Shown here one piece after another: positions 10,643 to 62,345 of a stretch of 64,000 nucleotides of DNA (positions are counted from its first letter, which is position 1; each line of letters starts with the position of its first letter). Under the pieces are notes generated by a model. That model saw only the letters and a program-made list of their open reading frames with translations. It made no database searches and had not been told where the DNA came from. The DNA is from a plasmid: the sequence record NZ_CP029448.1, one strand, 5' to 3'. Position numbers and translations under genes: made by a program.

Positions 10643-10693
10643 TAAGCCAGTGACTTCGGCGTCAAATCAGGGTCTGACAAGTGGAGCTGCGGG

Positions 10694-11128: not shown

Positions 11129-11300
11129 GGTTGGGTCTCCGGTGTTTTCATACCCGAACAATCAATGCTTATAACAGAGAAAGCATTTGATCTCAGGGCT
11201 GGTTGATCATCACGCCAGGAACCGGGCGATTGAATTATCACGCTGTCCTGATTTATGGCTGATTATAAAAAACCGCCTCTGTTTATCGCGTGACTGAACG

Positions 11301-11316
11301 ATGACATTTTTGTCAC
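11301..11316. promoter_or_regulatory. cop-box-like palindrome ATGACATTTTTGTCAC upstream of pcoE
   Basis: TGACAnnnnnnTGTCA inverted repeat typical of CusR/PcoR/SilR binding sites. Confidence 0.45.
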
Positions 11317-11343
11317 CTTCCGGGTTTCTCCTGAATAACGGTA

Positions 11344-12744
11344 TTAATCCATTAACAGACGCACACTGAACACAATTTCCCGCCCCTGCTGTTCTGCTGA
11401 CAGCTCGCCGCCGTGAGCATGAATGATCGACCTTGTAATTGATAATCCCAGCCCCGCGCCTTCCGTGTTGTAGAACCTTGATGAGTCTGCGCGATAGAAC
11501 CGGTCAAACAAACGTTCCAGATTAGCGGGAACCTGGCCGGACATCGTATTCGTAATCATCACGTTCACACAGTCACTGTCACGCTCAAGGTGTATCGCTG
11601 TACAGGTGTTATCGGGAGAATACTTGATTGCATTGGAAAGCAGGTTACTGAAAGCACGTCGGAGCATATCGCTGTCTCCGGCAACAACGCCCTCTCCTTC
11701 AACCGTGATTGTCTTTCCTGTTTCGTCTGCCAGGGGCTCGAACAACTCACGTAATTCATTCAGTTCGGCTGCCAGATCCACATCATGTTTATCCAGCCGC
11801 AGCAGACCATGCTCTGAACGTGCCAGAAAAAGCATGTCACTGGTCATTCGTGACAACCTTTTCAGTTCTTCCAGGTTAGCGAATAAAATTTCGCGGTAAT
11901 GCGAAACATCCCTTTCCTTAGCCAGTGCAAACTGCGTCTGCATCATCAGATTACTGACTGGTGTGCGCAGCTCATGCGCGATGTCAGACGAGAAATCTGA
12001 CAGTTTCCGGAATGCCCCCTCCAGGCGATCAAACATATTATTGAACTCCTGCATGGTCTCAGAGATTTCCGGCGGAGCCAGATCGGGATTTAGACGCTGA
12101 TCCAGGCTGTGTACGGTCATGGAGGAAGCCAGACTGGTCATTTCCCGTAGCGGTTTCAGACCAATACGTGTGGTCAGCCAGCCCAGAAAAACAGAAATAA
12201 AGACCAGACCGATATTGAACCAGAACAGCCAGGTACTGAGTTTGTCCATAAACAGGGTGTGATACCCAGTATCCGTGGCAACCGTAATGATGACATGTTT
12301 GCTTTTACCCTGTTCCGGCGTCACGGCAACCCGCCGCGAGATACTGCGGTACACGGTGTTATTTTCTTCCGTCTGGATCATATAGTCGAGAATATCACCC
12401 GACTTATTAAGCAGGACCGCTGGAACAACAGAATTTTTGGCATAGAGTTCAACAATTTTTTCATTTTCCATGTTTTTTATAGAAATGAATAAGCCATTGT
12501 GCCCCACCATCGCATCGTTTATTTTTTCTGATAATGACTTAATATCCGTTTTGTTCCTGAACGTCTCTGTTTTAAGAAACTCTTCGGTGAGCTGAAGTTT
12601 ACCTGTCAGAAAATCGCGGTCCTGATTATCGAAATAGCCATTCAGGGTGCTAATCAGGATAAAACTTGATAACCACCATACCGTAAGCATCACCGCAGAA
12701 AAAATCAGGCTCAGGCGTGTGGTCAGGGAAATTTTGAACCTCAC
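11344..12744 (-). CDS. pcoS: copper-sensing histidine kinase PcoS
   Basis: two TM segments, HAMP, HisKA 'HELRTP' and HATPase_c; translationally coupled to pcoR. Confidence 0.9.
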
Positions 12745-13427
12745 TCTTCTCTGATCTCCAGGACATATCCGGCACCGCGAACGGTATGGATCAGTTTTGG
12801 CTCAAAGTCATCATCAATTTTACTTCTCAGACGTCTCACGGCGACATCAATCACATTCGTATCACTGTCAAAATTCATGTTCCAGACCAGGGACGAGATA
12901 AGACTCCTGGGTAACACTTCTCCGGTGCGTTGCAGCAGCAACTCAAGCAGAACGTATTCTTTACCGGTGAGATGGATCTTCTTCCCCGAACGGATCACGG
13001 TCCGGCGCACCATATCAACGGTCATATCGGCGATGGTGCAGACTGTTGCGGCCTGCGAGCGTGCCCGGCGCAGTAGGGTTCTTACACGTGCAACCAGCTC
13101 CGTAAAATCAAAGGGCTTAATCAGGTAGTCATCTGCGCCAAGCTCCAGTCCTTTCACTTTGTCCCGCACGTTGTCCTTTGCGGTTAAAAACAGGACCGGT
13201 TCTTCGTGCCCGGACTCCCTCAGTGCGCTGATGATTTGCCACCCGTCGAGGAAAGGCAGCATCACGTCCAGTATTATCAAATCATACTGTCCCTTCGACG
13301 CGGCCCCGAGACCATCGCGGCCATTATTAAAGAGATCGGCCTGATAGCCTTCCTCAACCAGTCCCTGCTGCAGGTAACGACCTGTTTTTTGTTCGTCTTC
13401 AACGATTAAAATACGCTGCATGGTCAA
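12741..13427 (-). CDS. pcoR: OmpR-family response regulator PcoR
   Basis: receiver domain 'LIVEDE...[10 protein letters not shown]' plus winged-helix output domain. Confidence 0.9.
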
Positions 13428-27183: not shown

Positions 27184-27537
27184 TCAGGATTGCGTAACGT
27201 TAATGCTTTTGAGTAAGGAGATATTGCCCTGCTGAATAAACGAGAAATCGACATGGTTGCCGGTTTTCAGGGCATTGATAGCGTCGTCTGCATTAACAAA
27301 AGTGAAGCGCATGGTCATTGCAGGCCAGCCCACCGCAGGGATTGCTTCGTGCGAAATGGTGATCTTTTTACTATTTATATCAATTTCTTTAACGACACCG
27401 GTGCCCTTGATAACCTGCTGTACCGAAGCATCACTGGCAGTATTCATATCGCCATGCTGATGTGTTTCAGCATGAAGACCGGCAGAAAACATGACAGAGA
27501 AGGCACCAAATAAAACAGCTTTAAGTGAATTACGCAT
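27184..27537 (-). CDS. silF: periplasmic metallochaperone SilF (CusF family)
   Basis: 117 aa, signal peptide, CusF-type H..M..M binding-site residues. Confidence 0.85.
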   Translation of the reverse strand: MRNSLKAVLFGAFSVMFSAGLHAETHQHGDMNTASDASVQQVIKGTGVVKEIDINSKKITISHEAIPAVGWPAMTMRFTFVNADDAINALKTGNHVDFSFIQQGNISLLKSINVTQS

Positions 27538-27565
27538 TTTTAATTTCCTGATTAATTAAATAAAT

Positions 27566-28951
27566 TTATTCTACCCAACCGCCACCCAGCGCAGTAAACA
27601 GATTAATTTCGTTAACCTGTCGGGAATAGGTAAGATCGAGAATGGTTTGCTGCGTAGCGAAGAGGGAACGTTCTGCATCCAGCACTTCGATGTAACTGAC
27701 AGCACCACTTGCATACAATCCTCTGGCTCGCTGGAGAGTTATCTGAAGTGAATCAAGATAACGCTGCTGTGACTCAAGTTGCTGGCTAAGGCTGTCGCGC
27801 AGCGCAAGCGTGTCGGAAACATCCTTAAAGGCTGACTGAATTTTTTGTTCGTAATTAACCACCGACTGTTGCTGGCGAATTTCAGCCAGCTTCAGATTGG
27901 CTTTATTCCTGCCAGCATTAAATATAGGAATTTCAATTTTAGGGATAAAATTCCACATTCCACTTCCTGACGTAAACAGGCTGGACAGCTCCGTACTGCT
28001 TGCGGAAAGGCCACTGGTCAGGGTAATGGACGGGAAAAAGGCCGCCCGCGCTGCGCCAATATTCGCATCAGCCGCTTTCAGCTGGTATTCCGCCTCCATA
28101 ATATCCGGTCGCTGCAGCAAAATTTGTGACGACAGGTTTGATGGCAGTTTAACTGGCGCGATCTCACCGCCTTTCATCCCTTTTTCTGGCGGCAGTGCAC
28201 GGTACGTTCCCAGCACCAGTTGCAGGGCATTGTTTGCCTGAGCCAGATCGCCTTCTCGTTTGGCTATCTCAGCGCGGGTACTTTCGATTTGTCCCCTGGC
28301 CTGTTCAAGCGCCAGCACATTCGTACTCCCGGTCACGAGCTGTTGCTCAACGAAAGCATAGGACTGTTCGTAATTTTTCAGCGTTTCCCGCGCGATACGG
28401 AGTTGTTCATACGCCAGTTGCTGGCTGAAATAGCTTTGTGAAACGCTGGAGACCAGCAGGATATGTACAGCCCGACGGGCTTCTTCGCTGGCAAAGTAGT
28501 TCTGGCGATCAGCGTCACTCATGTTCTTGAGCTTGCCGAAAAAATCGAGCTCATAGCGGAGTTCCAGACCCGCGTCGTACTCCTGTGTGGTCGGCTTGTC
28601 GCCTTTCAGACCACCGCTGTAGGTGATCCCGGATGAGGCATTCAGCTGGGGATAACGATCTGCATCCGTGACGTTGAACTGGGCCCGGGCCTCTTCAACC
28701 TTCAGGGCAGCCATTCTCAAATTACGGTTATTAGCAAGGGCTTCCCCGATCAGCCGGGTAACCTGGGGATCGACAAAAAAGTTACGCCAGCCCGTATCCT
28801 GATAACCATTCACTGCTGGCGTCAGGCTGTTTCGGGACAGTGAAAACTGCTGGGGTACCGGTGCTGCCGGGCGCTGATATTCAGGTGCCAGAGAGACACA
28901 ACCAGCCAGGATGAATATCGTGCTGATGCTGAGTAATTTTAATTTGAACAT
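27566..28951 (-). CDS. silC: outer-membrane factor SilC (CusC family)
   Basis: lipoprotein signal 'LAGC'; ORF extends to 29107 but internal start at 28951 gives the expected roughly 461 aa. Confidence 0.9.
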   Translation of the reverse strand: MFKLKLLSISTIFILAGCVSLAPEYQRPAAPVPQQFSLSRNSLTPAVNGYQDTGWRNFFVDPQVTRLIGEALANNRNLRMAALKVEEARAQFNVTDADRYPQLNASSGITYSGGLKGDKPTTQEYDAGLELRYELDFFGKLKNMSDADRQNYFASEEARRAVHILLVSSVSQSYFSQQLAYEQLRIARETLKNYEQSYAFVEQQLVTGSTNVLALEQARGQIESTRAEIAKREGDLAQANNALQLVLGTYRALPPEKGMKGGEIAPVKLPSNLSSQILLQRPDIMEAEYQLKAADANIGAARAAFFPSITLTSGLSASSTELSSLFTSGSGMWNFIPKIEIPIFNAGRNKANLKLAEIRQQQSVVNYEQKIQSAFKDVSDTLALRDSLSQQLESQQRYLDSLQITLQRARGLYASGAVSYIEVLDAERSLFATQQTILDLTYSRQVNEINLFTALGGGWVE

Positions 28952-38659: not shown

Positions 38660-39817
38660 TTATTTGGAACCTTTAGACCAGCGAAATCCCCAGCCAAATG
38701 CCTTATCCATCTCCTCCTGACCTCTGAAGAACTGGTTAATGCGTTCTACCCGGATGGACCCGTTGTCATTTACCAGACGGGCAATCGCACACAGCGTTCG
38801 TTTGTTATCACCTTCGGTCAGACGGGTTTCAATGGGGGGCTGGTCCGGTACATGGAGAGTCACAACACCGTCGGTTTTATCCCAGCTGGGGACACCCTGA
38901 TAAATGAAGGCATATATCAGTACCTGACTGATTTCCTTCCACTCCCGACCATTAATATGCATCCATTCGCCATCCGAGGCCTCCCCGGTACGATCATCGC
39001 CCTGCAGCTGAACAAAAGGTTCGTGATGATAGTTGCCAAAGGCATTGCCAAGAGCCTGGACCACGGATTTGTAACCGCCCTGAAGCTCCACGAACGCCCC
39101 CAAATCAAGATCGATCGCTTTGTTAGAGCCGAACATCCCACCGAGTAAACCACCGGAGTTGCTTCCGCGATGCCAGTTAAGGTTGATGCGGATCTCACCA
39201 AAGTTATCCTTCTTGGCAAGACTGATAGCCGGTTTTTCTTTGGTTAACGACACCTTACTCAGGCTCACTTTATTTGGAGCTGGGGGCGGTGTGGTCGGCG
39301 GTTGTGTGGACGGTGGAGGTTCATCAGAGACATTGACGCCAAAGTGTTCAGCCAGTGGCTTGAGCCCACCATTAAACCCCTGGGCAATAAACCGGAACTT
39401 CCATTCAGCGTTACGCCGATAGAATTCACCGAGGATAAGAGCAGCTTCCTGCCGTCCGGTCAGTTCGACCTGCCCGCTTATCAGTTGAGAAGCACCACTT
39501 TCAACCAGGATAGAAAGATTATTCAGAGCCGAGACGGTGTGGCTGCCGTCACAGGTCACCGTAAAAGCGACTTTCTGTACCTCTGATTTGAGGCGGCTAA
39601 GGTCAACGATAAAAGCGCTGTTATTTCCCTCGGCATGAAAACTGACAGAGTTATCGTCGTTGCGGGGCTGTCCGTAGAAGACCATATCGGTGTCTCCCTG
39701 CACTTTTCCATCGGCGAACAGACGGAAAGCTGAGGCATCGACAGAGCCACCGGAGAGGATCCGCACGCGGAGTTCCTGAGCGGGAACGGGGGCATTTCCC
39801 CCTGGAGTCAGGTTCAT
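38660..39817 (-). CDS. terA: TerA (tandem TerD-like domains)
   Basis: 385 aa with two TerD-like repeats and a Pro-rich linker. Confidence 0.9.
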   Translation of the reverse strand: MNLTPGGNAPVPAQELRVRILSGGSVDASAFRLFADGKVQGDTDMVFYGQPRNDDNSVSFHAEGNNSAFIVDLSRLKSEVQKVAFTVTCDGSHTVSALNNLSILVESGASQLISGQVELTGRQEAALILGEFYRRNAEWKFRFIAQGFNGGLKPLAEHFGVNVSDEPPPSTQPPTTPPPAPNKVSLSKVSLTKEKPAISLAKKDNFGEIRINLNWHRGSNSGGLLGGMFGSNKAIDLDLGAFVELQGGYKSVVQALGNAFGNYHHEPFVQLQGDDRTGEASDGEWMHINGREWKEISQVLIYAFIYQGVPSWDKTDGVVTLHVPDQPPIETRLTEGDNKRTLCAIARLVNDNGSIRVERINQFFRGQEEMDKAFGWGFRWSKGSK

Positions 39818-40404
39818 GAGCTAACAACCGTACTGACAATGTCCGCGTGCATATCATCAATTGTACGGCCAGTACTGGCTTTACCATGGGCAGTAAAGTC
39901 CCAGTTGCCGTTATTGCGTCGCAGTGAGGCGATAATGATCCCGGTATGTGAACCCTGTTCGGTGAGTTTGTATCGGGCCAGTTCTTTATTGGTCTGGTCT
40001 ACTACGCGGCAGAAGGCGTTATCCACATCGTTGAAGGTCTGTCCACGGAAACTGTTAACCGTAAAAGCCAGGTATTCAACTTTTGCAGGCAATTTGCTGA
40101 GATAGACGTTGATGACTTCATCGTCACCATCACCGTCACCCGTCAGGTTATCGCCGGTATGCACCACTGAGCCGCAGGTCGATTTCAGTTTACGAAACCA
40201 GATTGTGTCAATTTTATTACCGGCACTGTCCAACAGAACGCAACCAGCGTCCAGATCGATAGAATCATTGCCGCCAAATAGGCCCCCGAAAATCCCTTTC
40301 TTCTTTAGCGGATCCCATCCAAGACCAAACTGAAGTTGACTGAGAGCAGTAGAGTGTTTGCTGAGTGATACCGTCTGGTTTTTACTTAAAGAAACCATAT
40401 TCAT
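39814..40404 (-). CDS. terZ: TerZ (TerD family)
   Basis: 196 aa, 'GDNLTGDGDGDDE'; first gene of terZABCDEF. Confidence 0.9.
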   Translation of the reverse strand: MNMVSLSKNQTVSLSKHSTALSQLQFGLGWDPLKKKGIFGGLFGGNDSIDLDAGCVLLDSAGNKIDTIWFRKLKSTCGSVVHTGDNLTGDGDGDDEVINVYLSKLPAKVEYLAFTVNSFRGQTFNDVDNAFCRVVDQTNKELARYKLTEQGSHTGIIIASLRRNNGNWDFTAHGKASTGRTIDDMHADIVSTVVSS

Positions 40405-40574
40405 TCCTTAAAAGGTATTGACTGAGACAATGGGTATTTAATAGTTAATTTGGTACAATGAAAATCATATCATGACAAAGTTCTCTCGCAAGGTAAAAAA
40501 TGGTAGGTTTTCGATATTTACCTTTCATTACATTGCCATCAAGGCATTAAATGATGGGTAACATGTTGTATATA

Positions 40575-40860
40575 GGGGTCCGCTTGGAAAAGGGAAAATA
40601 ACCTACGCTAAGACTACTTTTTAACCAATCGGCTATTGGATATCACTCGGTTCGCGGGGCTACAGCGTTTCTGTGTCCGAAACCGAACGATTGCGTACAC
40701 CATGCCAATAACATGTACGAAAGTAAGCAAAACTGTTAACGGACAGTCAGATCGTTCCGTACATCCCTTACGGTCAGGGGTTCGCGCTCAATGGAACGAA
40801 ATCACTCGTTAAGCTCAAAACGCTTAACGTAGGAAAATTTCCGTTTTCCAAGCGGACCCC
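40575..40860. mobile_element. 286-bp Tn3-derived miniature inverted-repeat element (TIME-like MITE) in the terZ / ATP-grasp divergent promoter region
   Basis: 38-bp terminal inverted repeats GGGGTCCGCTTGGAAAAGGGAAAATAACCTACGCTAAG (40575-40612) and the reverse complement of 40823-40860 = GGGGTCCGCTTGGAAAACGGAAATTTTCCTACGTTAAG. Both have the Tn3-family GGGG...ACGYTAAG ends. Flanked by TA-rich TATAT/ATATA; no ORF inside. Confidence 0.6.
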
Positions 40861-41003
40861 TATATATTGAATTATATATAAGTTTGCGCCATTTCAAAAT
40901 CAGCCAGTGTTTATCATATTATGATTGACATGAAGCGGGTGGGTTCATAGACTCATTAATCAGAAATACACTCCCTTTCGTCTTCAGGAAAACTCAATAA
41001 AAG

Positions 41004-42062
41004 ATGAAAAAGAAAATTTGGTTTATGGAAGGTTTGTCATCCCAGCGAGACATTATTCTCGCTGTTAAATCTTTTGCAGAAAAAAATAAAACAGACATTC
41101 AGGTTATTTCTTCTCACCGTAATGAAAGAAATGAAATTCTCTCTGTTTCAGATCTCTCATTAATCGAACCTAAAAATGAAGATGACCGTCTTTCTTTCAT
41201 TCACTCCGTCACGATGAACCATGGCATTAATGCGATTCATACCGGGCGAAACTGTAAATGGTTTGAAAGTCAGCGAGATGCCATTCAATCCCCGTCCGTG
41301 AGTCTGACAACAGGCGCGACCGGGACTGAATGGTTCGAGCTCGCTGACGAAAAAGTTACTTTTTCGGAGTTCATGGCAAAAAAAGGTCTCCCGGTTGTAC
41401 CATCTGTTCGGGTCACCTCTCTCGACGAACTTCGCAATTTGCTGAGTCACTCGCCGTTTCCTTCTGATTGTCTCTGCATTAAGCCCGTGACCGGCATTTA
41501 TGGCATGGGATTCTGGCGTTTTGATGACAATGTTTCCCCTGTTGCATTTCTGAATAATCCCGACAGCCGTGTTATCCGCCCGTCACAGTATCTGTCTGCA
41601 CATGCCGAAATGGAGACCTTTACACCTCAGGTGCTGATGCCTTATTTATCCGGGCCAGAATATTCCGTGGATATGGTGGTCAGTCAAGGGACGGTCCTGG
41701 CCGCTATCGGGCGGCGTAAGGAAGGCGTGCTTCAGTATCTGGAGAATGAAGGGGAAGCGATTGAACTTGCCATCGACTGCGCCCGCTTAATGAACGCAGA
41801 CGGCCTGGTTAATGTTCAGACCCGCCATAATGCCGAAGGCAAACCACTGTTGCTGGAAATTAACATGCGACCATCAGGTGGTATCGGTTATACGCAGCAC
41901 AGTGGCGTGAATCTGCCGGGTCTGTATGCCTTCCATACACTGGGGTTGATGGATGAGGATCAGATCAGGCAGTCAGCGAAAACTGATTTTTCGCCTGCAG
42001 TCGTCCGCTCTGTCACCGACGTCATTCGCTACCCGGCATTATTGACCAACAGAATAGATTAA
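41004..42062 (+). CDS. ATP-grasp domain protein (ter-associated biosynthetic module)
   Basis: 352 aa; ATP-grasp fold motifs ('EYSVD', 'LLEINMRPSGG'). Confidence 0.75.
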   Translation: MKKKIWFMEGLSSQRDIILAVKSFAEKNKTDIQVISSHRNERNEILSVSDLSLIEPKNEDDRLSFIHSVTMNHGINAIHTGRNCKWFESQRDAIQSPSVSLTTGATGTEWFELADEKVTFSEFMAKKGLPVVPSVRVTSLDELRNLLSHSPFPSDCLCIKPVTGIYGMGFWRFDDNVSPVAFLNNPDSRVIRPSQYLSAHAEMETFTPQVLMPYLSGPEYSVDMVVSQGTVLAAIGRRKEGVLQYLENEGEAIELAIDCARLMNADGLVNVQTRHNAEGKPLLLEINMRPSGGIGYTQHSGVNLPGLYAFHTLGLMDEDQIRQSAKTDFSPAVVRSVTDVIRYPALLTNRID

Positions 42063-43216
42063 TGGAGATAAATATGTCAGTAATGGATGGATGTTCCGTT
42101 TATCAAAAGACATTATCTTGTGGGCGGATTGAGGTAAGCAGCCAGGTGACCGATTATCCTCTTACTGATCTCTTTGATATCGCCGAACGGCGGAATCCTA
42201 AACGCGCATTTCTGTTTGTCAGTAAAGTGCTGGGTCGCCATATTCCTGTCTCGCCTCAGGTCATGCGCAATGTTTACACACAGCTGGCGGAGCAGTTCCT
42301 TGGGACACTGGACGGGCCTGTGGTCTTTATCGGGATGGCCGAGACGGCTGTCGGCCTTGGGGCGGGAGTGTTTGATGAGGTGCGTAAGCATCACCCTGAT
42401 TGTGTCTATCTGACATCAACACGCCATCCGGTCGATGGCGAACTGCTGTGCGAGTTTAAAGAAGAGCACAGTCATGCCACTGACCACCTGATCTACTGTC
42501 CCTCCACACCGGATATGCGGCGCACAGTGGCAGAAGCTCAGACGCTGGTGCTGGTGGATGATGAAGCCACGACGGGAAAAACGTTTCTCAATCTTCTGGC
42601 CTCATTACGTGCATCGGGTGCACTCCGGCAGGTACGACGGGTTATTGCTGTCACGCTGACTGACTGGAGCGGAGAGGCCCTCAGTCAGAACAGCCCCCTG
42701 CCTGTTCACGCTGTATCGCTCATCTCAGGCAACTGGCGCTGGACACCCGAACCGGATGCCCCGCTGCCCGTCATGCCCCCGGTTAATGTGACCTCCAGGG
42801 GGAACATCCCGATCACCGGCAAACAATCCTGGGGGCGACTCGGGATGCAGATACCGGCCAGTGACCTGGGCCTTAAGGTGAAGGTTTCGCACGGGGAAAA
42901 CATTCTGGTGCTGGGCACCGGCGAATTCGTCTGGGAACCGTTCCTGCTGGCTGAACGTTTGGGATCGGCGGGCGCTCAGGTCCTTTACAGTTCCACCACC
43001 CGATCACCGATTTCAACCGGCTTTGCAATCCAGTCCGCCATTGCTTTCAGCGATAATTACGGCCTGGGTATCCCGAATTTTGTCTATAACGTCGCCCACC
43101 AGCGGTTTGACCGCATCCTGCTTTGCACAGAAACTCCGGCGTCGAGCGTGGACCCCCGCCTGCTTGAGGCGCTTTCCGCCGTCGCTCCTGCCGTAGAGGT
43201 GATTACCTATGAATAA
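42062..43216 (+). CDS. phosphoribosyltransferase (PRTase) domain protein
   Basis: 'VLVDDEATTGKT' PRPP-binding loop. Confidence 0.75.
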   Translation: MEINMSVMDGCSVYQKTLSCGRIEVSSQVTDYPLTDLFDIAERRNPKRAFLFVSKVLGRHIPVSPQVMRNVYTQLAEQFLGTLDGPVVFIGMAETAVGLGAGVFDEVRKHHPDCVYLTSTRHPVDGELLCEFKEEHSHATDHLIYCPSTPDMRRTVAEAQTLVLVDDEATTGKTFLNLLASLRASGALRQVRRVIAVTLTDWSGEALSQNSPLPVHAVSLISGNWRWTPEPDAPLPVMPPVNVTSRGNIPITGKQSWGRLGMQIPASDLGLKVKVSHGENILVLGTGEFVWEPFLLAERLGSAGAQVLYSSTTRSPISTGFAIQSAIAFSDNYGLGIPNFVYNVAHQRFDRILLCTETPASSVDPRLLEALSAVAPAVEVITYE

Positions 43217-53256: not shown

Positions 53257-53462
53257 CCTAGCGCTCTGAGCGAACTGGCAAAACAGTTTTGGGAAAAACG
53301 AGGATAACGCTTTTCAGTATCTCGACAGGGATAACTTACTTTACCATCGGTATCCCTTTTAGCCGCACAAATTTTAGCCATGGCTTTTCAGGAAGTCAGG
53401 GCTATCAGAATGGCCTTAGAAAGCCTAGTCAAAGAGCTGTCACGAGAACACCGTTAGCTTAG

Positions 53463-53969
53463 CGTACGATTTTTTCCGAATTCTGCGGTTCCCCCTACTG
53501 GGTCAATGGCCCTCGCGCGGTCGATCAGGCTGGCTGGAAGAAAATTATCGGGGACAAACCGACCCTGATCATGCTCGATGAGTTGCCGCCCTACCTTGAA
53601 AACGCGAGCACTACTGTCATCGGCGGCGGTACGCTGGCTACCGTGAGCACCTACACACTCAGCTGCCTGATGAGCGCCGCTCTGGAGTTACCGCGTTGCT
53701 GCATTGTGATTGCCAACCTATCCGGCAGCTATGTGGCTCAGACCAAGGCAATTGCCGAAGCAATCTCTAACCTCCAGCAAGAAGCCAGTCGCCAAGCGAG
53801 CACCATCACCCCCGTGCAGTTGGCGGGTACCTGTTCATCCCTAGCGCCTCTCCGCCTTGATGCTGGCAGATTCAGTCTGGCCTCGCGGTTCGACCTACCG
53901 AAATATCGGCGGTTACATTGTCCCCAGAGCTTCAGACCCGGCTGTTACCGGCCACGCCTGTCTGGGTAG
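53463..53969 (+). pseudogene. remnant of a P-loop NTPase gene (no start codon until 53571)
   Basis: open frame '...KIIGDKPTLIMLDELPPYLEN...' Walker-B-like 'LIMLDE'; lacks N-terminus. Confidence 0.25.
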
Positions 53970-54567
53970 GGAACGAGTGGTGGAACAGTCGGTTCCGTCG
54001 GGCGTTAACCTGCGGAACAGAAACCCATGCGACTTTCAGGTCGCACTGCCGAAATAATACTGGTTTCCCTTCTTGGTCTGGTGCATTTCCGGGTCGCGCT
54101 TGCCGTCCTTGTTCTTGGTCGAACTGGGCGCATTGATCAGCGTTGCATCGACGATGGTGCCCTGGCGCAGCGACAGGCCGCGGTCGCCCAGAGCCATTGA
54201 TGACAGCGAGGATGCCGGCCGCCAGCTCGTGTTTCTCCAGCAAGCGGCGGAAGTTGAGAATGGTGGTTTCGTCGGGGATGCGCTCCAGGTTCAGCCCGGC
54301 AAACTGGCGCAGGATCGTGGTTTCGTACAGCGCTTCCTCCATCGCTGGATCGCTGTAGCCGAACCAGTTCTGCAGCAGATGCACACGCAGCATCGCCATC
54401 AACGGGTAGGCCGGACGGCCACCTTCACCCTTCGGATAATGTGGCTCGATCAAAGCAATCAAGCCCTTCCACGGCACCACCCGATCCATCTCGATCAGGA
54501 ACAACTCCTTGCGGGTTTGCTTGCGCTTGCCAGCGTACTCGGCGTCGGCGAAGGTCATCTGCTTCAT
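53932..54567 (-). pseudogene. IS5-family (ISKpn26-like) transposase, frameshifted and truncated
   Basis: first roughly 118 aa match the IS5-family Tnp N-terminus ('MKQMTFADAEYAGKRKQTRKE...'), then the frame is lost near 54165, consistent with a 2-bp deletion. Confidence 0.65.
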
Positions 54568-54639: not shown

Positions 54640-54677
54640 GGGGTTTGAGGGCCAACGATGTAAAAAACCACGTTAAT
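54640..54677. repeat. Tn3-family IRL (38 bp)
   Basis: see transposon entry. Confidence 0.8.
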
Positions 54678-54837
54678 AGGTTAACCTATTGTTTTATTTT
54701 AATTATTAGGTGCTGCATTTACAGCTACTCCAATGATCATGGGGCTGATGGTCGATGGAACGCAATACCAAGTAGATTGATTGCATAAAGTTCCTTCAAT
54801 TCCGATCTGCCCTCCCGTTTTCACATCCTACTTCAGT

Positions 54838-56904
54838 TCAATTTTGTTGCCATTCCTTTACAACAGCTTCCCAATTGGCCGTTCTCTCGACCAATTTCCC
54901 ATCAGCATCCTTTCTTGTCCAAACATCCCAGAAATCAGGGTCATCAGAATGGGGTTGCTGCTCTTTCGTCAAATTTTTCATTTTAACTAAGACAGGAAGT
55001 TCAGATGCCCAGCCCATCAGTATTGCATGTTGAGATGGCAATGAAGGCAATTCACGGAGTAATCCTCGCAAATTGTCGGGTACCATTTTATGAACTTGCT
55101 CCTGATCTTTGTCATTGCTAATTCGATGCAGAAGAAAAGTATTACATTGAGATAAAACTGTAGGTGATAATTCTGATGGTCGTTGCGAAGAAATAACCAT
55201 ACCGAGACCAAATTTCCTGCCTTCTCGTGCAATTTTCTCAAATACTTGACAGCAAACAGCTGCGACATCCTGATTTTCACTGTCCTCACGATACCGTTTA
55301 ATAAATGTATGTGCTTCTTCAGCAACAAGTACCGTAGGTAAAGATTTGTTATATAGTCGTCTATAACGTTGCAATGATTCAAAAATAATTCTTGAAATGA
55401 CAGCTGTCACAAGATGAGTAATTTCAGTTGGTACTAAAGAAAGATCAATAATTGAAACGCAGCTATCACCATCACCATCTTTCCCAATATATGTTTCTAA
55501 CCAATTAGCCAAGTCAACTCTATGCTCTGAGTCATTGGTTATGGGTTTCATTCTTGTATCCGCAAGCATTGTGCGTATTCTAGCTACTAGATATTCAACA
55601 TATTGCTCGCTACCATTTTCTTGTGCTAACGCCTCTAAATAGGAGACTAAATTATTTCCGTCAAAAGGGACGGGGATATCCTCGTTTTTAGGAAGGAGTT
55701 CACACTCATCGCCTCCAAGGCTCTGAAATGAAGATAACACTCCATTTATGATGTTATCAACTGCGCTAACTTTAGCATTGTAATCTGGATATCTGCCTTC
55801 TCTTTGCCCACAAAAATCTTGAATAGAGATGATTAATTTATCTAGCTCAGGGCATGGTGTAGTTAATCTCGCTTTGTATTCTTCCAGACTCTGACGCCAA
55901 ATATTAATTTTAGCCAAAAGATTTTTGGCTCCAGGGAAATCATTAAGTGCCGCTGCTCCTTTAGATTTATCCGCTTTTAAAGAAACCAAAATTGTACCTA
56001 GGTATTTTTTAACTTCTATATCTATATTCTTTTGTAAATCAAATTCTTCATTTCTCATTGCTCTCAAGGAGCGTTTTAGTAATGGAAGTTGTGCTTTAGG
56101 ACTTGCTTGCGTGAATGATGCCCACTCCGAACTATTCCAAAACCATGAGGGTACTTGTAATTGGTTTTCACTGCCTTCAGCCTCAACCTTAAATACTCTA
56201 CCTTTAAATTTCGTCGTTGGCCCCAAAGCACGTGCATACTCGCCGTTGGGGTCTAGGATGATAAATCTGGCATTTGGTTTTATTTGTGATTCCAATGCAG
56301 ATTCGAGTGACCACTGGATTAATCCAGATACAGAGCAAGACTTACCGCTACCAGTATTTCCGAGCACTGCTATATGACGACCAAATAATCTATCAGGATC
56401 TACAGCTACATTTGCATTGTTCGCAAGTGGACTTTGTCCAATGATCACTCGCCTATTATTTCCAGATTCGACTATTGATCTAAGTTGTAAATCTGTCGGT
56501 AGTAAAATAGCAGCCCCAATAGAAGGAAACGATTCAGAACCTCGTTGAAATCTGAAATAATCAGTACCATCTTTGGACAAACGTTTAAGCATTCCCACCG
56601 GATTCAAACTTATTTTTTTTCGGGGGAATGGTAGATTTACTAAACCAAATTCTTGAACATCTCTTTGTTTTGGATAAGGCGAATGTTCTACAGCAAGCCA
56701 CTCTATTTGCCCAACTAAGTAACCATTATCACATGATATTAATACATAACTGTTTACTCTTGGAAAGTTTCTAGGCGTTCCTGCATTCAAAGCAACAGTA
56801 TCAGGTGAGTCAATCTCTAATATTGCTCTAATTTCATTAGGTGAAACAAAATCTACAGTGCCGACCCTGAGTTGCTCACCTTGTTCAATCGGAAATGAGT
56901 TCAT
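54838..56904 (-). CDS. herA: HerA-like (DUF87 / FtsK-HerA superfamily) ATPase, 688 aa
   Basis: Walker A 'GNTGSGKS', Walker B 'FIILDPNGEY'; start ATG overlaps the sir2 stop (ATGA). Confidence 0.8.
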   Translation of the reverse strand: MNSFPIEQGEQLRVGTVDFVSPNEIRAILEIDSPDTVALNAGTPRNFPRVNSYVLISCDNGYLVGQIEWLAVEHSPYPKQRDVQEFGLVNLPFPRKKISLNPVGMLKRLSKDGTDYFRFQRGSESFPSIGAAILLPTDLQLRSIVESGNNRRVIIGQSPLANNANVAVDPDRLFGRHIAVLGNTGSGKSCSVSGLIQWSLESALESQIKPNARFIILDPNGEYARALGPTTKFKGRVFKVEAEGSENQLQVPSWFWNSSEWASFTQASPKAQLPLLKRSLRAMRNEEFDLQKNIDIEVKKYLGTILVSLKADKSKGAAALNDFPGAKNLLAKINIWRQSLEEYKARLTTPCPELDKLIISIQDFCGQREGRYPDYNAKVSAVDNIINGVLSSFQSLGGDECELLPKNEDIPVPFDGNNLVSYLEALAQENGSEQYVEYLVARIRTMLADTRMKPITNDSEHRVDLANWLETYIGKDGDGDSCVSIIDLSLVPTEITHLVTAVISRIIFESLQRYRRLYNKSLPTVLVAEEAHTFIKRYREDSENQDVAAVCCQVFEKIAREGRKFGLGMVISSQRPSELSPTVLSQCNTFLLHRISNDKDQEQVHKMVPDNLRGLLRELPSLPSQHAILMGWASELPVLVKMKNLTKEQQPHSDDPDFWDVWTRKDADGKLVERTANWEAVVKEWQQN

Positions 56905-58292
56905 TCAGCATCCTCGCTATTATTTGAAATTGTTGTACGATATAAACCCCTTGATTTCAATAGTTCTGCCATACGAATTGATGATCTGTCTATCGCTGCT
57001 TTAGGAAGATAAAAATCCACTAAATTCTTGATATCTCCAAAGTGGTCACCAAGTAATAAAGATATTTGAGCTTTTCTTCCACTTTCGTTTACAAAGCGCA
57101 TAATTCTACCGAGTGGATCGCCGTAGGCAATTATTACTATATGCGTTGAGGGTATTGTCAGCATGTCAATAATAACACGGTTTATATGTTCATCTCCAAA
57201 ACTATAACCATATGTTACCAAAGTACTATTAGGACGACATGTTGCAGATGCTAAGTCTCTGAATAGTTCAACATAAGGGTATTCTGATGTTTCTCGGTCT
57301 TTAACCGAGTTTGGATAAATCATTAATTGATGATAGTTCGCTGCTCCAGCAGCCTCCACTTGTAAAAAGGGTTCCACCGAACTCGCACCAAAAGGTAATC
57401 CAAATCGCCTTATGGCTCCTTCGGTAGTATACCAGTCCAATGAGCCATGTAATTTAGTAAAGCGCGCCACACCTTCCAAATATCTTGGTTCACCACGAAT
57501 ACCCGGTGGATTATAATGATAGTCGACTTCTAGTCGCGAAGATCTGAAAATAGGCGCTATAGTACCAACAAATCTGTCAATTAGTCGAATACCTGCTATT
57601 TCAGCTCCTGCTTCAATTATCCTGTCGTAATTCGTCGTGAAAATATGTAATCGATCCCTTGTCGCTGTTCGACTTGAAAAACTCATCAAAAAACTTACTA
57701 AATAATTAAACGTTTGTGTTTTTAAATCGTTTTTTGCATCGCGAATTAACTTTTCCCCATTACTAACTGAATCTGAGAATAATTTCAAACATCTTGTTAG
57801 CTCATTATTTAACTCAACTAACTCACTTTTTAAATTTCGATATGGGAGAGCACCAGGAGGCGGTTCTGGAAGTGGGAGATTTTGCGCAGTTAAAATCTCT
57901 AATCCTTTAATTAACTCATTAATTGAACGGATTTGGTCTTCAATATTACCTCTTCCTCTTCCTGAGGCTTCAGCTGTTTTAGCTACATAACTATCTATTT
58001 CAGCCTTGCAAACTTTGAGATCATTAATCCATCCCATGCCTTGAGGTTTCGTGCCTGTCGCTGACTCTTGGATTGCTGAACTAAGTCCCGCGCCAATAAG
58101 TATATTTAGGTGTTCAGACTGAAAAAGAGCAGTTAACCAAGGTTCTATTCTTAAACGCAAAAAATCAGGAGTGATTTTATCTCCTGGTTTTGCCCATGAG
58201 CAGTGTCCAACAACTTTAAATGCACCAACTTCGCTGTGTGGATCCAACTGAACCGGAGACTGGTCATCTCCAAGCTTTAAGTATTGACTCAC
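56901..58292 (-). CDS. SIR2-like domain protein (predicted NAD+ hydrolase), 463 aa
   Basis: sirtuin-type motifs 'NILIGAGLS' (GAGxS), 'FTTNYDRIIE' (TxNxD), 'LHGSLDW' (catalytic His); no Zn-ribbon cysteines, as in defense-type SIR2. Confidence 0.75.
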   Translation of the reverse strand: MSQYLKLGDDQSPVQLDPHSEVGAFKVVGHCSWAKPGDKITPDFLRLRIEPWLTALFQSEHLNILIGAGLSSAIQESATGTKPQGMGWINDLKVCKAEIDSYVAKTAEASGRGRGNIEDQIRSINELIKGLEILTAQNLPLPEPPPGALPYRNLKSELVELNNELTRCLKLFSDSVSNGEKLIRDAKNDLKTQTFNYLVSFLMSFSSRTATRDRLHIFTTNYDRIIEAGAEIAGIRLIDRFVGTIAPIFRSSRLEVDYHYNPPGIRGEPRYLEGVARFTKLHGSLDWYTTEGAIRRFGLPFGASSVEPFLQVEAAGAANYHQLMIYPNSVKDRETSEYPYVELFRDLASATCRPNSTLVTYGYSFGDEHINRVIIDMLTIPSTHIVIIAYGDPLGRIMRFVNESGRKAQISLLLGDHFGDIKNLVDFYLPKAAIDRSSIRMAELLKSRGLYRTTISNNSEDAE

Positions 58293-58299
58293 TTTGAAT

Positions 58300-58869
58300 T
58301 CATCCTTCGTTAGAGTTAATAGCTGTTTTTCTTTTCAGCCTAAAATAGGTCGCCCTTGATATACCCGTTTTTTCCATTACTTCCTTAACTTGTACGTCCT
58401 TATTAATCAATTCATTAGCTAATTCAGCCTTCTTGTGAGGCTTTCTTCCGAATTTGACCCCCTTAATCATAGCGGTCTTCCGCCCATCGTTAGTTCGCTC
58501 CAAGATCCTTTCTCGTTCCGCCTCGGCAACAGCTGCTAGTATCTGGATAACCATTTTTCCCATTGTGCCTTCAGTACTAAGACCATTCTCTAGAAATCGG
58601 ATAGCGATGCCTTTTTTATAGCAAGTATCCACAATACGAATCATATCAGCGGTATTACGTCCTAGACGATCCATTTTAGTACAGAGGATGATGTCATCTT
58701 TCTCCGCTCTGGCAAGGAGTCTCTGTAGCCCTGCACGCTCATCAGTTGCTCCTGACATCATGTCAGTAAATACACGATCATCCCTCACTCCCGCTGTTTT
58801 GAGTTCAGTAATCTGGCTCGTCAGTTTCTGATGGCTGGTTGATACTCTTGCATATCCTAATAATGCCAT
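58300..58869 (-). CDS. tnpR: serine resolvase TnpR
   Basis: 'GYARVSTSHQ' catalytic Ser motif, C-terminal HTH 'ISRATYFRL'. Confidence 0.9.
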   Translation of the reverse strand: MALLGYARVSTSHQKLTSQITELKTAGVRDDRVFTDMMSGATDERAGLQRLLARAEKDDIILCTKMDRLGRNTADMIRIVDTCYKKGIAIRFLENGLSTEGTMGKMVIQILAAVAEAERERILERTNDGRKTAMIKGVKFGRKPHKKAELANELINKDVQVKEVMEKTGISRATYFRLKRKTAINSNEG

Positions 58870-59028
58870 TTTGGTCTCATAAATCGATATTGATACTGCG
58901 TAGTATCATAAGGTATAAATCGCGATTTTTGATACTAATGTATGATGCCGTTTTGAGCAGTCTCACAATTTATAATATTTGAGACGGTTAAAAAAAGGAC
59001 AGAACTCCCGTTTACGAAAGGATGCGCA
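58870..59028. promoter_or_regulatory. res site / divergent tnpR-tnpA promoter region
   Basis: AT-rich 159-bp spacer with perfect palindrome TGATACTGCGTAGTATCA (58891-58908) and related half-site TGATACTAATGTATGA (58930-58945). Confidence 0.6.
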
Positions 59029-62000
59029 ATGAGTGATGACTTTCTTACCAGCGAACAGACAGAAAACTACGGTCGCTATGTGGCAGACCCAAATGAGGTT
59101 CAGCTGGCTCGGTATTTTCATCTGGATGAGCGTGACCTTGCTTTTATTAATCAGCGACGGGGAAAACATAACCGGCTGGGGATTGCACTTCAGCTGACTA
59201 CGGCGCGCTTTCTGGGAACGTTTCTTCCTGATCCCCTTCAAATTCCCTCATTCATCCGTTTTTACATTGCGGCACAGTTGAACATCAGCCGACCAGAGAT
59301 CCTTTCCCGGTATGCTGAAAGAGAAAATACCCGCTGGGAGCATCAGGGGCTTATCAAGCTCTATTATGATTATCATGATTTTGGTGATTTCCCCTGGACA
59401 TTCAGACTGAAGCGTTTGCTCTATACTCGCGCCTGGCTCAGCAATGAGCGTCCAGGTCTGCTGTTTGATTTTGCTACCGCATGGTTGCTGCAAAATAAGA
59501 TCCTGCTACCCGCAGCCTCGACTCTGACAAGGCTGATTGGCGAAGTACGCGAACGGGCAAGTCGACGATTATGGCGAAGGCTGGCTTTGTTGCCTGACAG
59601 CTGGCAGAAAACACAACTGGACGGTTTACTTGAAATACCTGAAGGGCAGCGTATATCGGTGCTGGAGGAGATGCGAAAAGGTCCTGTCACTATCAGTGGG
59701 CCGTCATTTACAGACGCCCTGGAGCGATATACCCGACTGCGTAGCATGGAGTTTTCCCGGTTGAATTTCTCCGGTCTGCCTGCCATCCAGCTGCGGAATT
59801 TGGCCCGTTATGCCGGAATGGCTTCGGTGAAATACATTTCAAGAATGCCTGACGAACGGCGACTGGCCGTGCTTACTGCGTTTGTGAAAGCACAGGAAAT
59901 TTCGGCGCTTGACGAGGCCGTGGATGTGCTGGATATGCTTATTCTGGATATCACGCGTTCTGCAAAAAATATCGGGCAGAAAAAGCGGCTCAGGACCCTG
60001 AAAGATCTTGATCGTGCCGCGCTATTACTGGCACGGGCATGCACGTTATTACTTGATGAGAACACCGATGAAGCAGCTCTGCGGCAGGCTATTTTTCGCC
60101 GCATACCAAAGGACAAACTGGCTGAATCCGTCGGCAAGGTAAATGAGCTGGCGCGCCCGCAAGATACTCAGTTTCAGGATGAAATGGTGGAACAATATGG
60201 ACGGGTGAAGCGTTTCCTGTCCGCGATGTTGCGTGACTTACACTTTCAGGCCGCCCCGGCCGGGGAGCTCACGTTGTCAGCAATCCATTATCTGGCCGAA
60301 CTGAGTGGCTCAAAAAAGCGAATTCTCGACGATGCACCAGAGCAAATCATTTCCGGCCCATGGAAACGTCTGGTCTACGACAGAGATGGTAGGATTCTAC
60401 GAGCGGGTTACTCGCTGTGTCTTCTCGAGCGCCTTCAAGATTCTTTGCGCCGTCGTGATCTCTGGCTGGAGAACAGTGATCGGTGGGGGGACCCGCGTCA
60501 AAAATTGCTTCAGGGAGCTGAATGGCAGGCACAACGCATCCCGGTATGTCGGGCGCTGGGTCATCCATCAGACGGAACTAAAGCAGCAGAACAACTGGCT
60601 ACGCGGCTTGATGACACATGGAAATCAGTGGCTTCACGTTTTGCCTGCAACGCAGCGGTCAGCATAAGCAATGAAGGTAAGCATCCCTCACTGACGATTA
60701 GCAGTCTGGATAAACTGGATGAGCCACCGGCACTGATACAATTGAATCGTCGGGTAAGAGAATTGATCCCTCCGGTTGATCTGACGGAGCTGTTGCTTGA
60801 AATAGATGCCCGAACCGGTTTTACCCGCGAATTCAGCCACGTCAGTGAATCAGGTGCTCGGGCGCAGGATCTCCAGGTCAGTCTGTGCGCAACACTGCTG
60901 GCAGAAGCCTGCAATATAGGGCATGAACCCCTGATAAAGCATAATATTCCCGCGCTTACTCGCCATCGTCTGAGCTGGGTTAAACAAAATTATCTCAGGG
61001 CAGAAACGCTGGTCACCGCTAATGCACGGCTGGTTGATTTTCAGTCCACGCTGCCGCTCGCGGGGTACTGGGGAGGTGGTGAGGTTGCCTCCGCAGATGG
61101 TATGCGTTTTGTCACACCGGTTAAAACGGTTAATTCCGGACCAAATCGTAAATACTTTGGTTCAGGACGCGGTATCACCTGGTACAACTTCGTCTCCGAT
61201 CAATACTCCGGTTTCCATGGCATTGTAGTTCCCGGGACGCTTCGTGATTCCATCTTTGTACTGGAAGGGCTTCTGGAGCAGCAGACCGGGCTGAATCCGG
61301 TAGAAATTATGACGGACACGGCAGGATCCAGCGATATCATTTTTGGCCTGTTCTGGTTACTGGGCTACCAGTTTTCCCCTCGTCTGGCCGATGCAGGCGG
61401 GGCGATATTCTGGCGGGCAGATAAAACGGCACATTATGGTGCCCTGAATGAGCTGGCCCGGGGATGTGTTGAACTGTCAAAAATAGAATCCCAATGGGAT
61501 GAAATGATGCGAATGGCGGGCTCACTGAAGCTTGGGACCATCCATGCATCAGAGCTTATTCGTTCACTGTTGAGAAGTAGCCGACCATCTGGTCTGGCTC
61601 AGGCGATTATGGAAGTGGGCCGGGTCAACAAGACGTTGTATCTTCTCAACTATATCGATGATGAGGATTACCGGCGTCGGATCCTCACTCAGCTCAACCG
61701 GGGAGAAGGACGCCATGCAGTGGCTCGAGCCATTTGCTACGGACAACGTGGTGAGATTAGAAAACGCTACCGTGAAGGGCAGGAAGATCAACTCGGTGCT
61801 CTGGGTCTGGTGACCAATGCGGTTGTGCTGTGGAATACACTTTACATGCAGGAGGCGTTGTCACATCTTCGCAAATCGGGGGAAACACCTGAAGAGGAGC
61901 ATCTGGCAAGATTATCGCCGCTGATACATGGCCATATAAATATGCTGGGACATTATACGTTTTCGTTACCGGAAGATATTCTGAAGGGCGAGTTAAGACC

Positions 62001-62037
62001 ATTAAATTTGAATACAAACAATGAATTAACCTCTTAG
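59029..62037 (+). CDS. tnpA: Tn3-family transposase TnpA (1002 aa)
   Basis: DUF4158 N-terminus 'RLGIALQLTTARFLG', Tn3 DDE catalytic body; stop codon inside IRR. Confidence 0.95.
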   Translation: MSDDFLTSEQTENYGRYVADPNEVQLARYFHLDERDLAFINQRRGKHNRLGIALQLTTARFLGTFLPDPLQIPSFIRFYIAAQLNISRPEILSRYAERENTRWEHQGLIKLYYDYHDFGDFPWTFRLKRLLYTRAWLSNERPGLLFDFATAWLLQNKILLPAASTLTRLIGEVRERASRRLWRRLALLPDSWQKTQLDGLLEIPEGQRISVLEEMRKGPVTISGPSFTDALERYTRLRSMEFSRLNFSGLPAIQLRNLARYAGMASVKYISRMPDERRLAVLTAFVKAQEISALDEAVDVLDMLILDITRSAKNIGQKKRLRTLKDLDRAALLLARACTLLLDENTDEAALRQAIFRRIPKDKLAESVGKVNELARPQDTQFQDEMVEQYGRVKRFLSAMLRDLHFQAAPAGELTLSAIHYLAELSGSKKRILDDAPEQIISGPWKRLVYDRDGRILRAGYSLCLLERLQDSLRRRDLWLENSDRWGDPRQKLLQGAEWQAQRIPVCRALGHPSDGTKAAEQLATRLDDTWKSVASRFACNAAVSISNEGKHPSLTISSLDKLDEPPALIQLNRRVRELIPPVDLTELLLEIDARTGFTREFSHVSESGARAQDLQVSLCATLLAEACNIGHEPLIKHNIPALTRHRLSWVKQNYLRAETLVTANARLVDFQSTLPLAGYWGGGEVASADGMRFVTPVKTVNSGPNRKYFGSGRGITWYNFVSDQYSGFHGIVVPGTLRDSIFVLEGLLEQQTGLNPVEIMTDTAGSSDIIFGLFWLLGYQFSPRLADAGGAIFWRADKTAHYGALNELARGCVELSKIESQWDEMMRMAGSLKLGTIHASELIRSLLRSSRPSGLAQAIMEVGRVNKTLYLLNYIDDEDYRRRILTQLNRGEGRHAVARAICYGQRGEIRKRYREGQEDQLGALGLVTNAVVLWNTLYMQEALSHLRKSGETPEEEHLARLSPLIHGHINMLGHYTFSLPEDILKGELRPLNLNTNNELTS

Positions 62038-62068
62038 CGTGGTTTTTTACATCATTGGACCTCGAACC
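62031..62068. repeat. Tn3-family IRR (38 bp)
   Basis: see transposon entry. Confidence 0.8.
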
Positions 62069-62345
62069 CCAGTGTGCGCTCTCTTGCTTGGATGGCATTA
62101 CGTTCTGGCCCAACGTTACTGTAGCGAATCCGCAGCAGTATCAATCAAAGCCTCCTGTATCCCGCGTGAAGAAAGACGCTACGTTGCGCCCGTTCTTCCA
62201 CGGCTTCGCTTGCCGCCCCGCTACGGCAGATTCGAAGTATTCATCGAAATGTCATCCTTTAGAAGCAGTGCGGTAACAAGGAATTTCTATCCTTTGCATC
62301 GCGAACCGCAATTGTGCGGCCAGCAATATTGCGAAAGGTGATCAA

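Follow-up and report, generated by a model that had tools for sequence, protein, structure and literature searches.

A probable Tn3-derived miniature element (TIME) with a putative res site between the divergent ter operons of a plasmid

The plasmid stretch analysed here (64 kb, hereafter the window) contains at 40575-40860 a 286-bp segment that is very probably a TIME, that is, a deletion derivative of a Tn3-family transposon which kept the terminal repeats and the res site and lost tnpA and tnpR. Its boundaries, an empty site at the same locus, the target duplication, copies at multiple sites, the homology of repeats and interior to an autonomous transposon family and the existence of mosaic variants were each read directly from the sequences compared. 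The copy in the window is a very recent insertion into a ter plasmid backbone of Raoultella type.

The element and its insertion at the ter locus

The element begins with GGGGTCCGCTTGG and ends with CCAAGCGGACCCC, and its 38-bp inverted repeats terminate in ACGCTAAG and ACGTTAAG. Read along the + strand, it runs from the tnpA-side end to the tnpR-side end. The following features were assigned.

40569..40574, no strand: left copy of the 6-bp target-site duplication TATATA, from comparison with the empty site
40575..40860, + strand: complete TIME (non-autonomous Tn3-family miniature element), 286 bp; absent from p602815-NR, with identical copies elsewhere
40575-40612, + strand: left 38-bp terminal inverted repeat GGGGTCCGCTTGGAAAAGGGAAAATAACCTACGCTAAG, presumed TnpA binding and cleavage site
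40823-40860, - strand: right 38-bp terminal inverted repeat GGGGTCCGCTTGGAAAACGGAAATTTTCCTACGTTAAG, matching the left repeat at 33/38 positions
40861..40866, no strand: right copy of the 6-bp target-site duplication TATATA, from comparison with the empty site

A preliminary description of the window, made from the sequence alone, had proposed a 286-bp segment without an ORF between Tn3-type terminal repeats, and this was borne out. An ORF scan found no frame of 60 aa or more inside the element, the longest being 58 and 38 aa, both with a TTG start; at 286 bp and without a transposase gene, the element lies within the 50-500 bp range of miniature elements. The 38-bp length given for the repeats was also correct, while the identity between them was recounted as 33 of 38 positions in place of 32. 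A repeat finder returned the two repeats as the top and longest inverted pair of the region, at a reported length of 44 nt, the extra bases coming from the palindromic TATATA flanks. Both repeats have the length (∼38 bp) and the GGGG...ACGNTAAG form of Tn3-type repeats. A generic Tn3-family repeat pattern matched 7 sites in the window (0.94 expected by chance), among which only the two repeats of the element matched with 0 mismatches. Against the Tn21 repeat they were identical at 27-30 of 38 positions.

A 1286-bp query centred on the element was used to look for the empty site that the preliminary description had proposed as a check. The ter island of p602815-NR, a Raoultella ornithinolytica plasmid (NZ_MN310380.1), was matched in two pieces; the flanks were 100% identical and exactly 292 bp were missing. 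The missing bases correspond to the 286-bp element plus the 6-bp TATATA: the empty site reads GTTG-TATATAT-TGAA and the filled site GTTG-TATATA-[286 bp]-TATATAT-TGAA. Because the ends of the element are set at GGGG/CCCC by other copies, the duplication is 6 bp, TATATA. The pentamers ATATA (left) and TATAT (right), earlier taken for a 5-bp duplication, are not direct repeats of each other and were rejected in favour of the hexamer, which fits the empty site.

The element was found at the ter site of no plasmid in PLSDB, where no record covered 80% or more of the junction query. The nearest relatives of the window backbone were Raoultella plasmids. Since the flanks are 100% identical to those of the empty-site plasmid, the insertion was judged to be recent and private to the source of the window.

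The segment could instead be a non-coding RNA, or a structured regulatory region conserved among ter islands, as its regulatory intergenic position and several dyad symmetries might suggest. It is, however, missing from p602815-NR, whose ter island is otherwise identical, and from all other ter plasmids in PLSDB, and identical copies occur in unrelated contexts. An Rfam search of the element gave no match at E≤1 and the folding of the interior was not superior to that of shuffled sequence (z = 0.27 and -1.22), so the RNA explanation was rejected. This reading, the probability of which is negligible, is already refuted by the empty site and by the presence of copies elsewhere than in ter islands; with no PLSDB plasmid carrying the element at the ter site, a conserved and unique part of all ter islands, which the preliminary description had named as the outcome that would count against it, is excluded. 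The insertion is no regulatory feature of ter islands.

The element is flanked on one side by a TerD-domain gene that occupies the terZ position (39814-40404, - strand), on the other by a Ter-associated ATP-grasp gene (41004-42062, + strand) followed by a PRTase gene (42062-43216, + strand). A consensus scan predicted a core promoter for each of the divergent operons.

40464..40491, - strand: predicted terZ core promoter, TTGCGA-16-TATGAT with extended TG, outside the insert and intact
40925..40953, + strand: predicted core promoter of the ATP-grasp operon, TTGACA-17-TAGACT, 10/12 matches, outside the insert and intact

The -35 elements of these two predicted promoters are separated from the insert, which is upstream of both, by 78 and 64 bp, and the consensus scan found no promoter-like site inside the element. 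The intergenic region minus the insert was aligned to ter islands of ∼80-90% identity. Both promoter blocks were conserved in these diverged islands, each with a near-palindromic box ATCATAT(C/T)ATGA, and the insertion point fell in the AT-rich, least conserved centre of the spacer. The centre-to-centre distance of the two boxes increases from 157 to 449 bp upon insertion. A TATAAT upstream of tnpR was found in most parental transposons and is kept in no TIME variant. Outward promoters were therefore rejected, none being detected in the element and the parental TATAAT being replaced. As the predicted promoters are conserved and intact, the insert sits in the unconserved centre, no internal promoter-like site was seen and the TATAAT is lost, the insertion is most likely neutral or nearly so for ter expression.

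That it alters expression of terZABCDEF and/or the ATP-grasp/PRTase operon, by added spacing or by outward reading, and was selected for that effect, is considered unlikely. In Tn3-type parents the promoters of tnpA and tnpR are located in the res region, and in the window the former tnpA side faces terZ and the former tnpR side the ATP-grasp gene, both in sense. One Pseudomonas TIME has weak promoter activity in one orientation (PMC4133298), and the change in spacing between the conserved boxes at the two promoters may matter for a common regulator. Against this stand the predicted core promoters and boxes, intact at 64-78 bp from an insert that fell where the spacer is least conserved, the element itself without a promoter-like site and, in all TIME variants, with the parental TATAAT replaced; moreover, there is no sign that the ter-site insertion has spread, because it is absent from all PLSDB plasmids. 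The literature on TerW and the terZ promoter yielded nothing directly usable. The preliminary description had thus placed the insert correctly between the divergent ter operons, but its suggestion of altered expression found no positive evidence, the predicted promoters being intact and none lying inside. The insertion at the ter locus is a recent, probably neutral marker that sets this replicon apart from its closest relatives.

The putative res site and the cognate transposon family

In at least 12 autonomous relatives, the region between tnpA and tnpR aligned collinearly with element positions 96-205. TGTMCG half-sites were located at element positions 100, 125, 140, 171 and 189, with order and spacing as in the relatives. 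Three subsites with paired half-sites, arranged as in the res of an autonomous serine-resolvase transposon, were assigned.

40674-40699, + strand: putative res site I TGTCCGAAACCGAACGATTGCGTACA, the tnpA-adjacent subsite in relatives, presumed crossover site, with its centre at 40684-40689
40714-40745, + strand: putative res site II TGTACGAAAGTAAGCAAAACTGTTAACGGACA, 32 bp, with inverted half-sites TGTMCG, from alignment with relatives
∼40750-40774 (boundaries approximate), + strand: putative res site III GATCGTTCCGTACATCCCTTACGGT, the tnpR-adjacent subsite in relatives

The order of the subsites, with site I towards the former tnpA end of the element and site III towards the former tnpR end, is the classical one of the Tn3 and gamma-delta res. 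In the relatives the gene adjoining the intergenic region encodes Resolvase and HTH_7 domains. Conservation was measured across 11 aligned full-length members of the family (73-100% identity). Mean pairwise identity was 0.86, 0.81 and 0.85 for sites I, II and III and 0.86 and 0.89 for the repeats, against 0.49 for the spacer between sites I and II and 0.66 for element positions 39-99. The subsites are thus conserved to the same degree as the repeats. The interior hairpins of the preliminary description exist as inverted motifs (gtacg...cgtac and others); they are best accounted for as the dyad half-sites of the res subsites and not as RNA structure. With the same high probability as the TIME explanation of which it forms part, the interior is the parental three-subsite res, and homology suggests that it functions as one.

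Over its first 48 bases the element was 87-92% identical to sequences that, in many plasmids, abut a Tn3-family tnpA at its 3' end. When species-representative genomes were scanned with GGGGTCCGCTTGGAAAANGGAAA, 112 loci were obtained from across Enterobacterales, at many of which the repeat was directly adjoined by a tnpA 85-97% identical to the Tn3-family transposase with abutting repeats. A complete example of this cognate transposon is 5476 bp long (L060, 427-5902) and consists of IR, two-ORF cargo, tnpR, intergenic region, divergent tnpA and IR. Repeats of the cognate family matched those of the element at 32-36 of 38 positions (2-6 positions differ). The tnpR-res-tnpA module was detected in 197 PLSDB plasmids (coverage ≥80%), which come from the same genera, Raoultella included, and it occurs together with a copy of the TIME on one Salmonella plasmid. 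In Enterobacter ludwigii (NZ_CP116351.1) the module spans 9244-12963. NCBIfam and RefSeq give only generic names to the cognate genes ('Tn3 family transposase', 'recombinase family protein'). An 852-bp IR-res-tnpR-IR element of the E. coli plasmid pLH50-c-A (L003, 6001-6852), the resolvase of which has Resolvase and HTH_7 domains, looks like a halfway stage from the full transposon to the TIME.

Homology to this family suggests that the element is mobilised in trans. A cognate TnpA would bind the repeats of the element, and its likely source would be the cognate Tn3-family transposon, which is widespread in enterobacteria and arranged as IR-(cargo)-tnpR<-res->tnpA-IR. Replicative transposition by this TnpA into AT-rich DNA would give a duplication of 5, occasionally 6 bp. 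The cointegrate would then be resolved at the element's own res by a cognate serine resolvase supplied in trans, or else by homologous recombination. The present copy would in this way have landed in the AT-rich, unconserved centre of the terZ/ATP-grasp region, between the core promoters, with duplication of TATATA.

Neither a cognate transposase nor a further cognate-type repeat was found in the 64-kb window. The window does contain the two Tn3-family transposase genes that the preliminary description had listed, and these (TnpA at 1243-4140 and 59029-62037) belong to resident transposons with repeats of their own.

1210-4873: resident 3.66-kb Tn3-family element with perfect repeats
53458-53495: solo Tn21-like repeat
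54640-62070: resident 7.4-kb Tn3-family transposon with an intact repeat pair

Either resident could be thought to have moved the element in trans, as had been suggested: both have full-length Tn3-family transposases and intact repeat pairs, and Tn3-family transposases sometimes act on related repeats (PMC4133298). The repeats were compared, as had also been proposed. Those of the residents matched the TIME repeats at just 18-23 of 38 positions, mostly in the family-wide GGGG and ACGNTAAG motifs, as opposed to 32-36 of 38 for the cognate family; the solo repeat matched at 24-25 of 38. The resident TnpA proteins were 36% and 30% identical to cognate-type TnpA and the resident resolvases ∼35% identical to cognate TnpR, and TGTMCG half-sites were absent from the res regions of the resident transposons. 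Because repeats, TnpA and TnpR are all divergent, the residents were rejected as partners, and mobilisation by a window-resident transposon is very unlikely. The Tn3-family transposase of plasmid pKpnC22 was likewise rejected as a partner, being unrelated (28% identity over a partial alignment).

Copies on other plasmids and mosaic variants

The search for further copies, another check that had been proposed, gave 60 PLSDB records with a copy at ≥99% identity, at least 35 of them with a copy identical at 100%. The plasmids with identical copies came from at least 8 genera, and the copies occupied many sites unrelated to one another. Full-length 100% copies were present in Pantoea, Lelliottia, Enterobacter, Citrobacter, Klebsiella, Escherichia and Salmonella. 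These full-length copies were carried by IncN, IncX5, IncHI2, IncF and ∼5-kb mobilisable Col-type plasmids, and copies were present on metagenome contigs too. The IncN plasmid pKpnC22 carries two copies of the TIME. Among 5426 complete E. coli genomes, 554 contained relatives at ∼70% identity or more (72-94%) with coverage of the element of ≥80%. None of the copies inspected was annotated as a TIME; they were either unannotated or overlaid by a 'hypothetical protein'.

The flanks of 28 full-length copies were surveyed, and direct repeats of 5 or 6 bp, usually AT-rich, were identified at several sites in addition to the ter locus.

L120: 5-bp duplication TTCTT
L131: 5-bp duplication TATAA
L134: 5-bp duplication TTATA
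L145: 5-bp duplication AAGAA
L146: 5-bp duplication ATTAT
Window copy: 6-bp duplication TATATA
L118 and L142, one common IncN plasmid site: 6-bp duplication TACGTT

The sites with 5-bp duplications fix the ends of the element exactly at GGGG...CCCC. Duplications of 5 and sometimes 6 bp, AT-rich, are those of TIMEs and of Tn3-family transposons (PMC4133298; PMC13367494). The same element is thus found at different sites, with its own duplications, and an empty site is known. The core of the preliminary description, a non-autonomous Tn3-derived miniature element in the terZ/ATP-grasp divergent region, is upheld by the empty site together with the many identical copies.

These copies also bear on whether the element could be the remnant, decayed in situ, of a full transposon that once occupied the ter site. 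TIMEs do originate through internal deletion of full transposons, and the parental res and repeats are kept here. The 100% identical 286-bp sequence is nevertheless present at many other sites with site-specific duplications, therefore the deletion predates both the spread of the element and its insertion at ter. Decay in place was accordingly regarded as extremely improbable, and insertion of a ready-made TIME is preferred.

In about half of the copies surveyed no flanking duplication was found, and several groups of copies share a single flank (L143/L147; L135/L140/L129; L126/L123). The missing duplications and the one-sided sharing of flanks fit recombination at the element after insertion, although they are not proof of it. 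Post-insertion recombination has likewise been remarked for the TIMEs of Pseudomonas (PMC4133298).

Three variants of the element are mosaic. Variants L123 (94% identity) and L133 (91%) match the window copy without a difference in positions 1-118; beyond that point L123 has 19 differences and L133 has 27. Variant L103 (92%) has 20 differences within positions 1-89 and only 2 thereafter. From where the variants switch between identical and divergent sequence, all three breakpoints are confined to element positions 90-118, which comprise the left half and the centre of site I. Breakpoints at site I match the outcome that resolvase-mediated exchange would produce. Homologous recombination in a conserved block could give the same mosaics, because site I is also the best-conserved stretch of the interior.

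A broader reading was considered, by which the element belongs to an undescribed, very common family of res-carrying TIMEs of Enterobacterales plasmids and acts chiefly as a portable res site. This is put forward tentatively, its chances being judged slightly short of even. If it is true, halves of the element would be swapped at site I, replicons fused and resolved and flanks exchanged wherever a cognate resolvase is present, and the family would be an overlooked driver of plasmid mosaicism. The retained res, the mosaics and the many copies without a duplication make it a natural case for the shuffling of plasmid segments by non-autonomous Tn3 derivatives. TIMEs are missed by standard annotation, and a named reference sequence would help the annotation of plasmids and of resistance contexts.

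Comparison with named TIMEs

The empty-site proof, the 6-bp duplication, the cognate family, the res and site I mosaics and the non-cognate nature of the resident transposons are new here. The kind of element is well known from IS101 and TIME244, yet this version of it seems to be unnamed. The repeat string GGGGTCCGCTTGGAAAA was found in no paper of the searchable literature, which also gave nothing specific on a 286-bp Tn3 MITE. Reference sequences of TIME244, IS101, IMU and MITESen1 were taken from Table S2 of Gomi and Yano 2026 (PMC13367494). By every sequence criterion the element would be classed as a TIME, but identity with any of these four was rejected: global identity was 50-57% in either orientation and the likeness was limited to repeat motifs. 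On comparison with these four named TIMEs, the family of the 286-bp element appears to be unnamed though common.

IS101 (TIME-IS101, 209 bp, from pSC101) is similarly gene-less, with Tn3-family repeats and a res of its own, so that the design IR-res-IR is common to both. Transposase and resolvase are both supplied to IS101 in trans, from Tn1000 (gamma-delta) (PMC13367494; PMC4133298). The two sequences are unrelated beyond generic repeat motifs, with ∼50% global identity and repeats that match those of the 286-bp element at 20-22 of 38 positions. IS101 originated from the Tn3/Tn1000 subgroup, whereas the 286-bp element would derive from a different, unnamed enterobacterial transposon. The res of IS101 is experimentally functional; that of the 286-bp element is putative, on the strength of its homology.

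TIME244 is also a TIME of enterobacterial plasmids with a putative three-subsite res, recognised by homology to the parental res, and with 5- and 6-bp duplications (PMC13367494). It is known within composite structures that bear resistance genes (PMC13367494). It differs from the 286-bp element in sequence (53-54% global identity), and its repeats are of Tn21 type and its res of Tn21/Tn1721 type.

MITESen1 (256 bp) and IMU (288 bp) are enterobacterial TIMEs of comparable size. The named repeat nearest to the right repeat of the element was the right repeat of MITESen1, at 32 of 38 positions. The global identity of 56-57% is nevertheless background outside the repeats, and the interiors of MITESen1 and IMU have no similarity to characterised res sites (PMC13367494).

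The TIME family was defined by Szuplewska et al. 2014 (PMC4133298), with TIME1-4 and TIME-RES of Pseudomonas. The Pseudomonas TIMEs resemble the present element in their AT-rich 5- and 6-bp duplications, in the many database copies without a duplication and in their mosaic derivatives; they are mostly plasmid-borne and usually single-copy (PMC4133298). TIME1-4 differ in length (262 bp) and in origin (Tn5563/Tn5044 subgroup), and a res was merely speculated for them. TIME-RES, with the structure IR-tnpR-res-IR, is the Pseudomonas parallel of the 852-bp element in E. coli pLH50-c-A.

Tn3-family elements in the window

The window carries a 3.66-kb Tn3-family element at 1210-4873, which is bounded by perfect 38-bp repeats (GGGGTCGGTTCCGGCTGAGGGCGAAATGACACCCTAAG), and a 7.4-kb Tn3-family transposon at 54640-62070, the terminal repeats of which agree at 33 of 38 positions. 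Two genes of the latter, encoding a SIR2-like protein and a HerA/DUF87 ATPase, are cargo and look like a transposon-borne SIR2-HerA anti-phage defence pair. A solo terminal repeat of Tn21/Tn1721-like sequence was located at 53458-53495 and is probably the leftover of a third Tn3-family element; it is adjoined by a fragment of an IS5-family transposase gene (53932-54567).

Features of the Tn3-family elements (window coordinates)
1243-4140, minus strand, TnpA of the 3.66-kb element, 965 aa
4235-4840, plus strand, serine recombinase of the 3.66-kb element, 201 aa
53458-53495, minus strand, solo Tn21/Tn1721-like terminal repeat (GGGGGAACCGCAGAATTCGGAAAAAATCGTACGCTAAG)
54838-56904, HerA/DUF87 ATPase, cargo of the 7.4-kb transposon
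56901-58292, SIR2-like protein, cargo of the 7.4-kb transposon
58300-58869, minus strand, tnpR of the 7.4-kb transposon
59029-62037, plus strand, tnpA of the 7.4-kb transposon

A box common to the divergent ter promoters

Near-palindromic boxes were found on both promoter sides.

Promoter boxes (window coordinates)
40464-40475, terZ promoter side, ATCATATCATGA
40913-40924, ATP-grasp operon promoter side, ATCATATTATGA

The first overlaps the predicted terZ -10 and the second abuts the -35 of the predicted ATP-grasp operon promoter. As both are kept in ter islands of only ∼80% overall identity, the boxes are probably an operator common to the two promoters, at which a regulator would act.

Copies and relatives of the 286-bp element

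The IncN plasmid pKpnC22 (NZ_MH713705.1, locus L118) contains two 100% identical 286-bp copies in inverted relative orientation.

Copies on pKpnC22 (coordinates local to L118)
5553-5838, 286-bp copy
27403-27688, 286-bp copy

One of these is flanked by a 6-bp TACGTT duplication; the other is without a duplication and adjoins the qacEdelta1 / blaPER-2 region. On a Lelliottia amnigena plasmid (NZ_CP077333.1, L148 ∼1501-1825) a further, incomplete copy of the element's own repeat end (...CCTACGCTAAGA) stands immediately before it. This points to an insertion that was tandem or abortive, or to a scar left by recombination.

Relatives with 72-74% identity (database loci L152, 2501-2786, and L153, 2499-2782) retain the two repeats, and their res subsites are conserved. 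Of 5426 complete E. coli genomes, 554 contain relatives at a query coverage of at least 80%; these are nearly always plasmid-borne and often adjacent to colicin or cvi genes, and none of the copies inspected was annotated. A truncated relative (82.5% identity) lies downstream of IncFII repA in pKpQIL-type KPC plasmids (pKpQIL, NC_014016.1 5589-5777; L149 5001-5189), comprising element positions 1-189 and stopping just past res site III.

An 852-bp element (6001-6852 of locus L003) on the E. coli plasmid pLH50-c-A (NZ_CP100501.1) consists of an IR, a resolvase gene (196 aa), res and a second IR. The 286-bp element can be aligned to it at its res and at its left junction, and on this alignment the 852-bp element is likely an evolutionary intermediate. 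It is similar to 'TIME-RES' of Pseudomonas.
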